A stretch of 64,000 nt of DNA from a virus. Each line of letters starts with the position of its first letter. Within the stretch, counting starts at the first letter, position 1. The position numbers and the translations under genes were made by a program. This document shows, one piece after another, positions 37,709 through 48,198 of this stretch. The stretch lies in the IMG/VR virus record IMGVR_UViG_3300043540_000321, positions 64,001-128,000 of that record; one strand, written 5' to 3'. The notes beneath the pieces were generated by a model that searched no databases, was not told the origin of the DNA, and saw only the letters and a program-made list of their open reading frames with translations.

Positions 37709-38014
37709 ATGACTATGTATTGTGACCTAGAAATTTATTGGGAAGGGTCTGTAATAGCCCTATTAGACGGAGAAACAGACTTCGTCGAACCCTTTATTAA
37801 AACAGTTCGAGAGATTACGTCGGCTAAGATTGACTGGCACCGCTTCGAAGGAATAGCCCGCGTTCTTTGCCTGGTCGATTCTAAGGAAGAGTGGGACACA
37901 GTCTTCAAAACACTTCTATCCGAATACGATAAGCTGCCTGATAGTCAGAAAGACTTGGTCGACAAAGAGTTAAGGATAATGCGAACACATCCCAATTACC
38001 CAGAAGTCGATTAG
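37709..38014 (+). CDS. small counter-oriented hypothetical protein
   Basis: 101 aa, AAAGGAG Shine-Dalgarno; stop overlaps the stop of the giant gene. Confidence 0.65.
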   Translation: MTMYCDLEIYWEGSVIALLDGETDFVEPFIKTVREITSAKIDWHRFEGIARVLCLVDSKEEWDTVFKTLLSEYDKLPDSQKDLVDKELRIMRTHPNYPEVD

Positions 38015-47000: not shown

Positions 47001-48198
47001 GTCGCTTCTGCTCTGCCAGAGTACGAACCGCCTGGATCAAGTCCTGAGCATACCCTCTCGATCTCAATATGAGACTCAACTCGCCCATTGAGATAACAAC
47101 CTGATCGCCGTTGGCGACTGAGTTTGGATCGAATGCAGCCGTTCTCAATGCACTGGTGATGCGACCGTAAATCTCGGACTCCACGTAGAGGAACCCCCGA
47201 CTGGTGCCGTCGGCTGCCATCTGTTTTCTGAGACCACCGGGCTGGTAAGAGAACTGCTGAGTCGACCTCGCCATCCGAGTAATCGTGTCAGTCAACGTCA
47301 TGATCTCGCCAGCGATCGCTGCTTCCGTCTGTGTCGACCGCTCCGTCTCAGAGCTAAGAGCATTCCGCGTTGATGGTCGATTGAAGACCATCAGGGTCTC
47401 AAGCGAGTTGTTGTTCGCCAGGGCGGGCGTGATGTTCTGGGAACCGATGAACGCTCGATATCCTCTGCGATCGTCTCCGGCATAACCGATCTTCGGGTGG
47501 AAGGAGGCTGTTGCATCCACTCCAACGATCGGACTCTCCTGGAGTCCACGTTGTTGTTGAAGTAGCTGGCCGACATCCAGTGAGAGTCGGTTTCCAGCGA
47601 GGATCTGCCCAGTCGTCTCCCAGTCCTTCCGAACCGTTGCCGGATCGCCTGGAGCATATCTCAAGTCCTGCGTGACGATCGACCAGGGACTCCTGCGGCT
47701 CGTTAGAGAAGAGACGATAGACTCCTGTTGAAACTGAAAGAAGACTGCTTGCAGCGTACCCGGCTGGAAGAGGGCACGGTACTCCTCAACACCTGGTCGT
47801 GGTATGAACCCGGTGGGTGGGGTATGTGCCTGACCTGCCAGTTGAGACGGGCGGGCAAAGTTATTGACGGTGGGAGCCGAATTTATTAAACGCTGGGCCA
47901 GACCTGAAAAGACCTGCCCCGCCTGTTGAGAAGGTCTTTGAAAAGAAGTTGCCTGAGTGTCTGCGATAATGCCCAGACCATCCCTGGCAAAGCGTTGAGT
48001 GATCCGGAATGGGTCGCCCTGCTCCGTCTGCAGATAGTCCGAGACAAAGTCGTCAACGGGTGAGGTGAAGGCTGACCGAGTACCGCCGTACCCGGCAGGC
48101 GGAGTGTCTGGACTACCCTCCGACCCAGACTGAGACTCGGGGTTGAGAGGTAGCCCTTCTTCGTCATACCCACCGTAAGGAAGCTCTTCTTCGTCCAT
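38011..48198 (-). CDS. giant 3395-aa protein: tandem PLD domains plus single-chain two-barrel (DPBB) RNA polymerase; putative virion RNAP
   Basis: HPK...FIGSQN (H234) and HDK...VGSANFS (H453); GSRPAGAGLVKGPF (K1366, beta-like); AMGDRQTFEGAVGIAVGSFALDPDEVGLGK (~2124-2153, beta' region C-like); VRRGGAP (R2281/2282); LLSMLGDYDGDAYQF (D2343/2345/2347). Confidence 0.8.
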   Translation of the reverse strand: MDEEELPYGGYDEEGLPLNPESQSGSEGSPDTPPAGYGGTRSAFTSPVDDFVSDYLQTEQGDPFRITQRFARDGLGIIADTQATSFQRPSQQAGQVFSGLAQRLINSAPTVNNFARPSQLAGQAHTPPTGFIPRPGVEEYRALFQPGTLQAVFFQFQQESIVSSLTSRRSPWSIVTQDLRYAPGDPATVRKDWETTGQILAGNRLSLDVGQLLQQQRGLQESPIVGVDATASFHPKIGYAGDDRRGYRAFIGSQNITPALANNNSLETLMVFNRPSTRNALSSETERSTQTEAAIAGEIMTLTDTITRMARSTQQFSYQPGGLRKQMAADGTSRGFLYVESEIYGRITSALRTAAFDPNSVANGDQVVISMGELSLILRSRGYAQDLIQAVRTLAEQKRLTIVTDNSRLSGFFDSLRDAKFGGSTQALGVDETFIRLLIDTGSIRTATTGYQHDKSISIFGGTDQKLMFLSVGSANFSADSLIPVSQLNRFQDEYFNNALNAAKRTFTDFDPESPINLDTVVAVGAGRYRDEHRPVQKRLDPDGYLQELKQKSKLEQHYNVLSAGDLLKKMDRGQTLYKTGFLAERNADVSQVEQLRQALEKLNREIGGSVIEVEGRYTLKTGPDSPASQTGLKVRVRGVDSISGSLIINLTVDRHGNVILVDQNKLIPGSVFANKSSSPISLFGRKIQPGKSTQLSGMETAVSFIATVSRELSYQSRYSLVNSLFNRMVQERPGDLHAAARDIIAESLAMVAPEVAQAVESGQGRANLRTMMSGIKSASKELGISPSSTVYQAQRVLAAGVDSPIEDYTRTLSEADFSKRQNYLRVVFDELLQHQGDLFAQHRLTDVLLLDEQNLFQDLKLKLLLRSDENRRKFFAAQSTQTYRIVSDLAAPFLAAHELGYSGLQAVARLPVYSQESKFPLDTTYDRVIAAGVLDPAEVKSGTRLGEAGEFYRAVGAVTQAKPLKITAYGGLRQLTVVDSDISIGAATAHDMEKFLKGTAGLASVSREQWSKEVQQLQTLLVSKRSAQAITEEQDTMFLLPFPKPEQIPQRLKNVGGSRPAIDISSEMADKVRSLSHSVAELKADSLVSGRLREVLPAMQFAEVKRVASQYNGDFEKVQEYFRQAEMDPNNAYHGVIGPRAMKRVALIGGVSLVGDSSWVNSGYKLDLGDPQRVTVKVSSKQIKSQTETIGILSRYLAKGSVVIGAPIEAENQRVSQLLAERTAENPSIRDTQLQTELEQFDGGRYAHYLLKRDRGELKLYLKEGLYNYDQEKGDYQRTAQFSREGLIELEEAASFAETMWGRRRQTLTVKFGAFGKRHQEGVSVITEDPHVNVSQSGLISVTTDAMAVWRAGSGSRPAGAGLVKGPFTVIEESLFKDIQQTFSKRDPGSLMPEPVRGEKVYGLFGFSHFKGFNYESGIYLLSQRSSREALQSLPGQELARSLSLLFLGDETVKTELQRNLKRSNLEFVAHAIAMVQGTDFAKVDDEGRPASTLGKVALGLTLLADGVNADKDVQTGSLSSLKQTVIKALRGDEGASKHLKRQAGKLITAAVSDPAHSIRFSQGRVGLNEGSLIVRGAGLLAHTAFISKQIFGRSTAPGASVGTLFEQDLSDIDRYYTDPGYRNMVDAVAANANLSLKPDDPRHKVKSTMELLQAHIKNDFIIQDLRDMSVSRSLVPAGSKDEVALEYQYLTGLSSAYLRAFKPIAGDGAQQVHKAFAVLSGSLTLGLQDPNAAMEYRLALPSDEPGFTSRFHLDTQRFLLGYTSLGYKMGLLNDAIRGVGTRPGTERGYLLRFINLQQIATTFAGEGQTHLEERGVTLSRTYGVPYFSDQDSPAGRLQTKRLMKQLHLSETYAKDGDRRLSPMEIVTKLVSDSYSRFVADRRVRRATGEESVSFQDFVESGQGGRAISELERHYKVISELSQGSHRLVGVPLSSDDEVIRRKVQSRLKELSDRQANAIRENLNTNLYKQFVEGALHLETELSERQEKVPWDGQVRALLSEVRTTKQIVLPKFSLESTNDGRYRVSLLDPQRYKPSLGVLMGTDILRSISFIFPQYIDEGLRHQVDVRRQLVETEELRGRLMQPGAIISEAEKRKLETFQDSLENSRLGLVHLLGTDFVRKAMGDRQTFEGAVGIAVGSFALDPDEVGLGKRFHALVEDRNFGQMLSAQFNLIEQSSLRSPEHGARMLEVTRKLINSIGLKGPELDDKSGIMSRHSLDLMFESAQQSIRERKLSATQVLDLKAATISAMTNLPQARVQDLLNSRTSELSNVLALSKGAVRRGGAPAGSAGLTNETNVYNAVDLSTIQDRVRQAGGGLIPNTERSRTMMAAPAVGRLLSMLGDYDGDAYQFLLTNTTKRAAELHGIQKDIARKTRQLTRIEAEVDRHLDIDIDDAGHLYKMSSLSEQAEILRGELETHYQQLTEGIEEVNKNSLHLDRTPSRALKDVRKWVGSYVAFPDFIINNEQKVSTGTLMAMVQQLSGTMPQIEDARSHLHKTEERLAALQKFFDPLQGGVPFSPELSGLEKDARFSQLPEDIRSQWSALTTHSRSDTLEGFLSKSRDYFAFQANVAMGVEQINKSLKKAAGTIVNPFEMEGLQATIGQAGTELIGKTYNVLIPLLDRAIMGQSISAGLQTTGAESFKQTLDTNLLAMQQREGDVRRRKEIRGLREKLMDNTSSLRGMLLENYSGTVGTLGTMQQLIRDALKEKSEKGLIGILRQADANGKPLSQLIEEAETDRDRIDLIKKVVSTRLGPDISTPPGLEGTAARLREGQVHDPGITGFGALLRLAEFAMSDDETDLHKRFVEQPGLEKEYRRARLSRRASNVADFAALQIQGLLERSQAAFISSTLSSDFKQFYVDQLRDFHAEADSNKLSGIDRQYYDLVSEYEQQRSATSDLGQLNERLVQESTLLKIQHRNKEFGVLSVDQIKGLRESFQATSRVRFGSGDITERMIGANIDTYNAYIRMLQRGQQLMPSDALYMAYYKLAEFQGLRGYDQLSAMSPTNQQRAAQLMGVGLPGLSRGEQAILTEAMLTSPGGRTPLAVLQKTSGAISQGVYGLFDQLESLGSLHEQDENSIRYAESMRRQLAGIYEHGEINFDKVQQMGVVRTTPEANQVLRNVQEKLTELSAAPLDRKTPVENLRAMEKSERHASMFGAFTAPLLLAAAGAGAKFDDRMWQFGFDTLQAVAMLSSQKDTATAQLSGHSQDAAVAFSLSRIKNSMATEGFMLGAVQGFTQETMFAGINAVSHALVDKLSGRTHETPSGKSALLTVGAEVLSTIASLSIARGATQQRTLIGEYIPDRVGDLLEEAGEQVDRTEMELRDIFSQQQEYEVLDTDDNQRIDFDISAIPTQLEQDIMGGLVVINDESTPIATEFEDTASRRAELMGTVSDSYS

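Follow-up and report, generated by a model that had tools for sequence, protein, structure and literature searches.

A giant protein encoded beside the portal module of a contractile-tailed cyanophage is predicted to contain a highly diverged single-chain two-barrel RNA polymerase

RNA polymerases (RNAPs) carried in virions let a phage start transcription without the host enzyme and shape resistance to host defences. To our knowledge, such enzymes are known in N4-like, crAss-like, phiKZ-like and P23-45 phages and not in cyanophages, which are generally held to rely on T7-type enzymes or on a redirected host RNAP for transcription. Here we describe a 64,000-nucleotide stretch of viral DNA (the window; positions 64,001 to 128,000 of IMG/VR record IMGVR_UViG_3300043540_000321, a virus record of 195,211 bp with a completeness rating of 100%), in which one minus-strand gene encodes a protein of 3,395 amino acids (aa), hereafter the giant. 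A reading of the bare letters of the window (the original prediction) had proposed that the giant contains a complete, highly diverged two-barrel RNAP that is injected from the virion. Structure prediction, residue conservation and gene context point to such a polymerase core in a previously unannotated protein family that includes a protein of the Microcystis phage Ma-LMM01.

Among the described systems, gp66 of phage phi14:2 (PDB 6VR4) is a virion-packaged single-chain two-barrel RNAP that transcribes early genes (bioRxiv 10.1101/2020.03.07.982082). The giant resembles gp66 in being very large, in holding both double-psi beta barrels (DPBBs) in one chain, beta-like and then beta'-like, and in having been found through its aspartate-triad motif, with the qualification that gp66 is virion associated and the giant is predicted to be so. 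However, gp66 has 2,180 aa, comes from a podovirus of Bacteroidota and carries DFDxD, whereas the giant has DYDGD, belongs to a contractile-tailed cyanophage and is predicted to carry a PLD-like module at its N terminus and, between and within its barrels, a long helical insertion. In phage P23-45, the virion protein gp96, an RNAP fused to the tape measure protein, transcribes the gene for the non-virion enzyme gp64, and the two are paralogues (PMC10770324). That phage thus has two single-chain two-barrel RNAPs, a giant virion protein and an early enzyme of ~1000-1400 aa, and the matching pair in the window would be the giant and a 1,442-aa candidate at 59266-63594. P23-45 is a siphovirus with its RNAP at the N terminus of the tape measure, whereas here the phage is a myovirus, the predicted RNAP is central in a head-module protein and the two candidates lack profile similarity to each other. 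The QDE-1/YonO-type clade shares with the giant a DbDGD-type triad followed by an aromatic residue, as well as barrel-1 basic residues at matching offsets, but QDE-1 acts in cellular RNA interference, has ~1400 aa and is built on a slab/neck architecture, whereas the barrels of the giant lie ~770 aa apart.

Two further systems are similar in strategy. The N4 vRNAP (gp50, ~3500 aa) is described as a central polymerase with N- and C-terminal domains that is encapsidated, ejected and used for early genes (PMC13434306, PMC4496689), and the giant is like it in size (~3400 aa) and in its predicted layout of a central polymerase with terminal domains. However, the N4 polymerase has an unrelated, T7-like right-hand fold, and the resemblance is convergent. 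Phages phiKZ and AR9 inject two-barrel RNAPs through a contractile tail for transcription independent of host RNAP (PMC7598289, PMC7824862), but their enzymes consist of 4-5 polypeptides near bacterial beta/beta', whereas the giant is a single chain without sequence similarity to them. The statement in the original prediction that no injected RNAP of this combination had been described agrees with our literature searches, yet these two jumbo myoviruses already inject multisubunit two-barrel RNAPs. Giant virion-associated single-chain two-barrel RNAPs are likewise already known from crAss-like phages and P23-45. What is new here is a sequence-unrelated family, a new host group, a new combination of domains and the reach of the family into a well-studied model phage. 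As far as literature searches reach, a PLD-polymerase fusion was previously undescribed.

The gene and the parts of its product are listed below by window position, with an AlphaFold2 (AF2) model of the core described by its predicted local distance difference test (pLDDT) and predicted TM score (pTM).

38011..48198, minus strand: whole gene, 3,395 aa (P0001), from the open reading frame (ORF) list and translation; first gene of the minus-strand structural operon
46765..47502, minus strand: tandem PLD-like half-sites, H234-x-K236 with GSQN 252-255 and H453-x-K455 with GSAN 473-476
45016..45075, minus strand: conserved PF-K-EQ-PQRLKN-G-RP motif, aa 1042-1061, outside the modelled slice
40849..44313, minus strand: modelled RNAP core with both barrels, aa 1296-2450 (AF2 model m7dccdbba690c, pLDDT 82.1, pTM 0.58)
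44080..44313, minus strand: beta-like barrel (DPBB-B), aa ~1296-1373, with R1358 and K1366; strand-rich N terminus of the model, pLDDT ~65-88
41134..41820, minus strand: beta'-like barrel (DPBB-A), aa 2127-2355, with a helical insertion of ~110 aa, from VIA-align matches
41341..41358, minus strand: RRGGAP, aa 2281-2286, predicted counterpart of the beta' NR-x-P strand, inside the superposed barrel
41158..41175, minus strand: GDYDGD, aa 2342-2347, predicted Mg-binding aspartate triad, from family conservation and structural alignments
40072..40452, minus strand: strongly conserved KKAAG..NPF..EGLQ..IGQAGTELIGKTYN (aa 2583-2614) and QQLIRDALKEKS (aa 2698-2709)
38341..38736, minus strand: C-terminal Gly/Ala-rich hydrophobic segments, aa 3155-3171 and 3268-3286

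The ORF is uninterrupted from its ATG, and the four motifs that had suggested an RNAP, GSRPAGAGLVKGPF (aa 1356-1369), AMGDRQTFEGAVGIAVGSFALDPDEVGLGK (aa 2123-2152, containing GDRQTFEGAVG), VRRGGAP (aa 2280-2286) and LGDYDGD (aa 2341-2347), all lie where they had been placed, so the observation was correct as written. DYDGD occurs once in the protein, and D[FYW]DGD appeared by chance in 0.4% of 20,000 shuffles of it; a chance origin of the motifs is even less likely because the key residues are conserved across the family. The public gene call, P0002, is shorter (3,217 aa), starts 178 codons inside the long ORF and skips 47665-48198 (minus strand). As the skipped N terminus contains residues that are invariant among homologues (D62, F131 and Q155), the 3,395-aa ORF is probably the better reading and P0002 too short.

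A word-indexed search recovered nine relatives of 3288-4615 aa, the size range of the full-length homologues, with 24-44% identity. An exhaustive search of 1.84 billion representatives with a profile of aa 1296-2450 extended the family to 75 clusters at the 50% identity level, 58 of them below E 1e-30, while DNA-pattern scans of IMG/VR and metagenomes yielded just 3 and 4 loci. Family members are nearly all 3000-5400 aa long, with no recognisable short RNAP among the 75 clusters. Each full-length member has exactly one GD-x-DGD, where x is mostly Y, F or W, and in most members QR[LIM]KN is present ~1300 residues upstream of it. Some members, including L007 (P0009, 4,615 aa), L008 (P0011, 4,212 aa) and L013, are expanded by insertions of 500-1000 residues, located either in the interval that separates the barrels or downstream of the first module. 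The two conserved modules, aa ~1296-1800 and ~1945-2450, are frequently scored as distinct stretches.

Residue conservation was counted in an alignment of 59 family members, many only ~20% identical. In the beta-like region, R1358 is conserved in 56/56, K1366 in 54/54 and K1412 in 54/55; in the beta'-like region, the corresponding counts are 54/54 for G2132, 53/54 for R2282 and 56/57 for P2286. The original prediction hinged on the aspartates of the motif being conserved in homologues, and the triad D2343, D2345 and D2347 is indeed near-universal, being kept in essentially all members. E1688, G2342 and G2346 are also among the most conserved positions of the aa 1296-2450 slice. The spacing of 8 between R1358 and K1366 is the commonest in the family and equals that of Rpb2 K979/K987. 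In two-barrel RNAPs, the first barrel characteristically provides a pair of basic residues and the second a DxDxD triad (PMC9508822; PMC7824862), and the conserved residues of the giant fit this signature.

Sequence searches did not reveal a known polymerase. Pfam at E <= 1 returned for the whole 3,395-aa protein only a spurious spectrin-repeat row (E 0.12), with no match to PF05183 (RdRP), and gave no RNAP family for any of the 10 aligned family members; a PHROGs search had no match. PF00940 (T7/N4-type RNA_pol) was unmatched in the whole genome, and control genomes gave none either. Against 50,697 phage records, neither tblastn of aa 401-3395 (2,995 residues) nor megablast of 22 kb gave a match at the default limit; the homologues in Ma-LMM01 and in phage My-WqHQDG lie below that limit and were reached via the capsid gene. 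A profile built from 6 homologues was searched against all PDB sequences, a target set with two-barrel RNAP chains that include QDE-1 and cellular beta', and returned only chance rows (such as septin and a taste receptor) and no RNAP; gp66 of phi14:2 was not matched in this search, and 6VR4 is absent among the structural matches listed. With hhalign, the profile of the giant showed no similarity to the 1,442-aa RNAP candidate or to the 5-member family of that candidate. Because sequence searches are blind here, functional claims must rest on conservation, structure prediction and context.

A first AF2 run with 8 sequences had a pLDDT of 56, with all motif regions below 50, and its model was not used. 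The second model was built from a 38-row alignment of locus slices, fragments and 14 full-length representatives, in which the motif register was checked; it used no template, and the alignment held no known RNAP sequence. The beta'-like barrel of this model was superposed with VIA-align on four RNAP large subunits as follows.

Pol I A190: score 8.1, rmsd 2.1 Å, 90 residues; model 832-1060 on target 474-639
E. coli beta': score 7.7, rmsd 2.3 Å, 104 residues; model 832-1152 on target 345-499
Rpb1: score 7.3, rmsd 2.0 Å, 87 residues; model 832-1062 on target 343-493
T. thermophilus beta': score 7.1, rmsd 2.1 Å, 91 residues; model 832-1060 on target 621-751

All four superpose on one span of ~230 residues at a root mean square deviation (rmsd) of ~2.1 Å. 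Model residues 832-1060 correspond to aa 2127-2355, and in every target the matched region is the catalytic double-psi barrel, ending just past NADFDGD. The motif equivalences drawn by eye in the original prediction were recovered by structure: model residue 832, which is R2127 of GDRQTF, superposes on residue 345 of E. coli beta', within GKRVDYSGRS, and the aspartate triad falls at NADFDGD. QDE-1 is the best two-barrel match, spanning model residues 52-1060 and so both barrels. Its superposition starts with model residue 52 on QDE-1 725, 11 residues before R1358. In QDE-1, Q736 and K743 correspond to Pol II Rpb2 K979 and K987 (PMC9508822), and by offset R1358 and K1366 would lie at about these positions. 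The wider VIA-align list was swamped by helical-hairpin matches to aa 2353-2439, which are functionally uninformative.

An ESM-Atlas shape search placed first a cluster of 911-aa viral single-chain RNAPs, with 507 residues aligned (TM 0.35/0.42), well above the second-ranked row (TM 0.22/0.26). In this cluster, PF00562 (Rpb2_6, the beta barrel) occurs in 100% of members and PF00623 (Rpb1_2, the beta' barrel) in 97%. An ESM-Atlas feature search with aa 1960-2480 gave nothing usable. The AlphaFold and Foldseek check suggested with the original prediction, run on aa 1296-2450, predicted a DPBB fold around GDYDGD, with Foldseek E-values that were not significant: no PDB row reached E <= 0.001. The weak rows were mostly bacterial beta', Pol I A190 and AR9 nvRNAP (an AR9 beta' piece had a probability of 0.75), and the sole row to N4 mini-vRNAP had a probability of 0.02.

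The structural scores are moderate singly; jointly, they agree on the predicted fold, its boundaries and its catalytic positions, with invariant residues there. The model contains both features expected of the two-barrel superfamily, a beta'-type barrel with a DxDxD triad and a second, N-terminal beta-type barrel supplying two conserved basic residues, the latter with residue equivalences by offset only. On this evidence, a two-barrel RNAP core is very probably present in the 3,395-aa protein, and its proposed order, a diverged beta and then beta', is supported by the AF2 model, the structural matches and conservation. The modelled enzyme is far from any described family, with distant barrels and a helical insertion in the second of them.

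The surrounding genes bear on where such an enzyme might act. They are given below with the other features of the window and one from the rest of the genome.

48809-49117, plus strand: PAAR-motif protein (E 1.6e-20), divergent and just upstream of the giant gene
34866-36431, minus strand: Mu-like portal, with two small genes between it and the giant gene
31656-33512, minus strand: protease/scaffold
30215-31612, minus strand: major capsid
20384-23185, minus strand: tail sheath, 933 aa (Phage_sheath_1C, E 1.8e-9)
10713-11816, minus strand: baseplate wedge
2237-4051, minus strand: large terminase
1-1614, minus strand, continuing to genome 51512-65614: second giant ORF, 4,700 aa, following the terminase and closing the structural operon at its 3' end
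59266-63594, plus strand: 1,442-aa protein (P0012) with AAYGRVGVSAK, SRAPMT and GGDFDGD (aa 1146); a PIF1/AAA_30 helicase gene is next
G000:C1:178533-178682, outside the window, plus strand: NblA (phycobilisome degradation), 72 bits, above the Pfam cut-off

The giant gene is the 5'-most gene of an operon of portal, protease, capsid, sheath, baseplate and terminase genes, in line with its earlier description as co-oriented with morphogenesis genes, all of which it precedes. It abuts a Mu-like portal module in 9/9 related loci, with an orientation relative to the portal that varies, and a PAAR gene is close to it in 7/9, usually on the side away from the portal. That the phage is a contractile-tailed cyanophage, as had been supposed, is borne out by the sheath domain, by the capsid protein, whose matches are 10 cyanophage records only (30-34% identity; 8 Microcystis phages of the Ma-LMM01 and MaMV type, 1 Microcoleus phage, My-WqHQDG, and 1 Cyanophage MaMV-DH01), and by the NblA gene, which itself marks the genome as that of a cyanophage. 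NblA is also encoded near one homologue of the giant. The 4,700-aa protein has HxK...G(S)xN half-sites of its own at aa 97 and 278 and lacks DxDGD; it shows no similarity to the 3,395-aa protein beyond the GSxN motif.

Outside the modelled core, the giant carries several conserved regions. In the PLD-like half-sites, the HxK and GSxN pairs are invariant across 10 homologues, among them H234, K236, H453, K455, G473, S474, A475 and N476, but the half-sites lack the canonical Asp and their spacing is longer. The 3,395-aa protein itself has no Pfam match there, but one homologue matches RE_NgoFVII PLD (E 1e-4) and PLDc_2 (E 0.0025). In the PF-K-EQ-PQRLKN-G-RP motif, P1042, F1043, Q1048, R1052, N1055 and R1060 are invariant, and the region is 61% identical to Ma-LMM01 gp080 over 28 aa. 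The motifs at aa 2583-2614 and 2698-2709, with G2602, G2605, G2610, Y2613, N2614, Q2698, Q2699, R2702, D2703, K2706 and K2708 invariant, are also conserved in the giants of My-WqHQDG and Ma-LMM01. They lie ~250-350 residues past the aspartate triad, about as far as the bridge helix lies from NADFDGD in beta', and by position they are a lead to a candidate bridge-helix/trigger-loop region. The sole Kyte-Doolittle window above 1.5 in the protein is aa 3267-3286, and the translations of the Ma-LMM01 and My-WqHQDG giants have similar hydrophobic segments, which may be membrane-insertion or anchoring elements.

The family reaches two known cyanophages. In My-WqHQDG, a truncated coding sequence of at least 2,622 aa with LGDFDGD lies upstream of the head genes and matches the family profile with an hhalign probability of 96.5% (E 7e-10). 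In Ma-LMM01, gp080 (3,562 aa, "hypothetical protein") adjoins the portal-capsid module and is collinear with the 3,395-aa protein, with E 6e-9 across aa 2273-2708 and E 9e-6 across the QRLKN motif. Among viral structures, the BFVD model of gp080 gave the only significant match (E 5e-9), and its BFVD/UniProt name is "PLD phosphodiesterase domain-containing protein." In the Ma-LMM01 transcriptome (Table S3 of PMC5780444), gp080 has values of 0, 0, 7.3 and 8.5 at the four time points; it is silent at the two early points and belongs to expression cluster B5, together with portal-region and tail genes. That study found three temporal classes with near-identical sigma70-like promoters and almost unchanged host transcription, considered all classes to be dependent on host sigma70, and left the temporal switch unexplained (PMC5780444). 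We found no mention of an RNAP for the Ma-LMM01 lineage in the transcriptome paper, the Microcoleus phage preprint or surveys of jumbo phages and of polyvalent proteins, nor in the P23-45 paper and its supplements, which cover 23 RNAP families (PMC10770324).

We think it rather likely that the giant is a packaged and ejected single-chain two-barrel RNAP that transcribes the first phage genes without host RNAP. Packaging and injection are what we infer from the gene position, the conserved linkage to the portal, the size, the terminal domains and the coexpression of gp080 with structural genes, as a protein made together with structural proteins could serve early transcription only if packaged. 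Under this proposal, a giant multidomain protein would be made late, alongside the head proteins, packaged in the capsid near the portal and ejected with the DNA through the contractile tail. It would consist of an N-terminal tandem PLD-like (HxK) module, a central RNAP at aa ~1296-2450, perhaps extending to ~2710, and C-terminal hydrophobic Gly/Ala-rich segments. R1358 and K1366, with K1412, of the beta-like barrel would hold the RNA 3' end and the phosphates of the nucleoside triphosphate, and D2343, D2345 and D2347 of the beta'-like barrel would bind the catalytic Mg ions. The hydrophobic segments and the PLD-like head may act at the envelope or on host nucleic acid, while the central core would transcribe the first genes from the entering DNA, without the host polymerase. 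The first templates would probably lie in the divergent block on the plus strand, from ~48.5 kb onward, and the 1,442-aa RNAP candidate encoded there may take over later. The analysis itself establishes the ORF, its conserved motifs, the predicted two-barrel fold, the gene context and the family; that the protein polymerises RNA, is packaged and ejected and selects these templates is inferred.

The 1,442-aa protein is probably a second single-chain RNAP, of the YonO/QDE-1 type. It is unmatched in Pfam, PHROGs, the PDB (including a profile search) and phage records, and its ESM-Atlas feature neighbours, a lead only, are viral clusters with PF05183 RdRP (score 0.87, 181-183 shared features). Homologues of 1100-1470 aa occur in closer relatives, in the early/replication region. 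In the window, the plus-strand block holds a dNMP (deoxynucleoside monophosphate) kinase and many unknown genes besides this candidate. Just upstream of the candidate, a run of GAACCT hexamers (58963-59075, plus strand) encodes a Pro-Glu repeat in a 388-aa ORF, with a weak Trypan_PARP match. An intergenic element of the same block, GTCGCTGGG...CCCAGC-CTGA(C)GAG-...-CGAAAC, is repeated at 56386-56436, 56688-56704 and 57324-57367 (plus strand) and resembles a hammerhead ribozyme core; Rfam at gathering thresholds had no match in the whole window.

Several points weigh against a packaged polymerase. No sequence method, whether Pfam, PHROGs, PDB profile search or hhalign, ties the 3,395-aa protein to any RNAP. 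What supports the polymerase is a single predicted model, together with motif positions that agree between independent targets. The spacing from R to P in RRGGAP is 4, against 2 in NR-x-P. In Ma-LMM01, moreover, no homologue of the second RNAP could be detected.

Of the competing explanations, the one that survives best, though we regard it as unlikely, holds that the giant acts inside the virion or in ejection and that its two-barrel module has a role other than transcription, for example as a degenerate scaffold, a primase-like or RNA-dependent polymerase or a nucleic-acid-binding motor that helps to draw in the DNA. Two-barrel enzymes do include the RNA-dependent QDE-1 (PMC9508822), the best two-barrel match of the model, and the archaeal DNA polymerase PolD (PMC10770324), and the flanking PLD-like and hydrophobic domains suggest further functions related to ejection. 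However, the near-absolute conservation of the triad and the barrel-1 basic residues in ~75 clusters argues for retained catalysis, and each characterised virion-borne two-barrel enzyme is a DNA-dependent transcriptase. Rather improbable as well is an active two-barrel RNAP that stays unpackaged and is made during infection for middle or late genes in the cell. It would draw on the same fold and motif evidence, would need no virion association and would suit the transcription of gp080 from mid-infection onward. Such an enzyme would have no evident need for 3,400 residues, a PLD-like head and hydrophobic C-terminal segments; moreover, the giant gene is locked to the portal module in 9/9 related loci, and closer relatives already hold a separate RNAP candidate of 1100-1470 aa.

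That the barrels are a modelling artefact, with GD-x-DGD serving as a structural loop that binds Ca in a large and mainly helical virion protein that lacks a polymerase fold, is in our view very unlikely. The low pLDDT of the first model (below 50 at every motif region with 8 sequences) and the missing sequence-level link to RNAPs speak for an artefact, but the deeper alignment lifted the pLDDT to 82, four independent RNAP large subunits matched the same 230-residue span at an rmsd of ~2.1 Å with the triad on NADFDGD, and an alignment-free shape search ranked a fused Rpb2_6 and Rpb1_2 viral RNAP first over 507 residues. As in RNAPs, position 2 of the motif is aromatic and position 4 is G, and EF-hand-type DxDxDG loops have neither; an EF-hand-type calcium loop was rejected on this motif geometry and on the barrel fold. 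Scarcely credible, finally, is the tape measure fusion that the original prediction had allowed for, which has a comparable size and the P23-45 precedent (PMC10770324) to recommend it but was rejected on gene position, as the gene lies upstream of the portal and ~15 kb from the sheath, across the head genes and not between tube and baseplate, while the RNAP core is central (aa 1296-2450 of 3,395) and not N-terminal, and a separate 4,700-aa protein, with peptidase and lysozyme motifs in the original reading, ends the operon.

If a packaged polymerase is the correct reading, its reach may be wide. It is possible, although we hold this more tentatively, that the cyanomyoviruses of the Ma-LMM01 type, a lineage that takes in the Microcystis bloom phage, Microcoleus phages and ~75 metagenomic clusters, all inject a hitherto unrecognised giant PLD and two-barrel RNAP protein that starts infection independently of host RNAP. 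If true, giant encapsidated RNAPs would have arisen as a strategy a third time independently, N4 and crAss being the earlier cases, and this would overturn the published view that all transcription of Ma-LMM01 depends on host sigma70. More generally, a family of 3000-5400-aa proteins that is invisible to Pfam, PHROGs and PDB sequence searches is predicted to carry an intact two-barrel catalytic core, which would add a very divergent branch to the tree of two-barrel polymerases. One member is gp080 of Ma-LMM01, which serves as the reference phage for the toxic bloom-former Microcystis aeruginosa, and an injected phage RNAP would be a directly testable answer to the puzzle of the temporal classes of this phage (PMC5780444).

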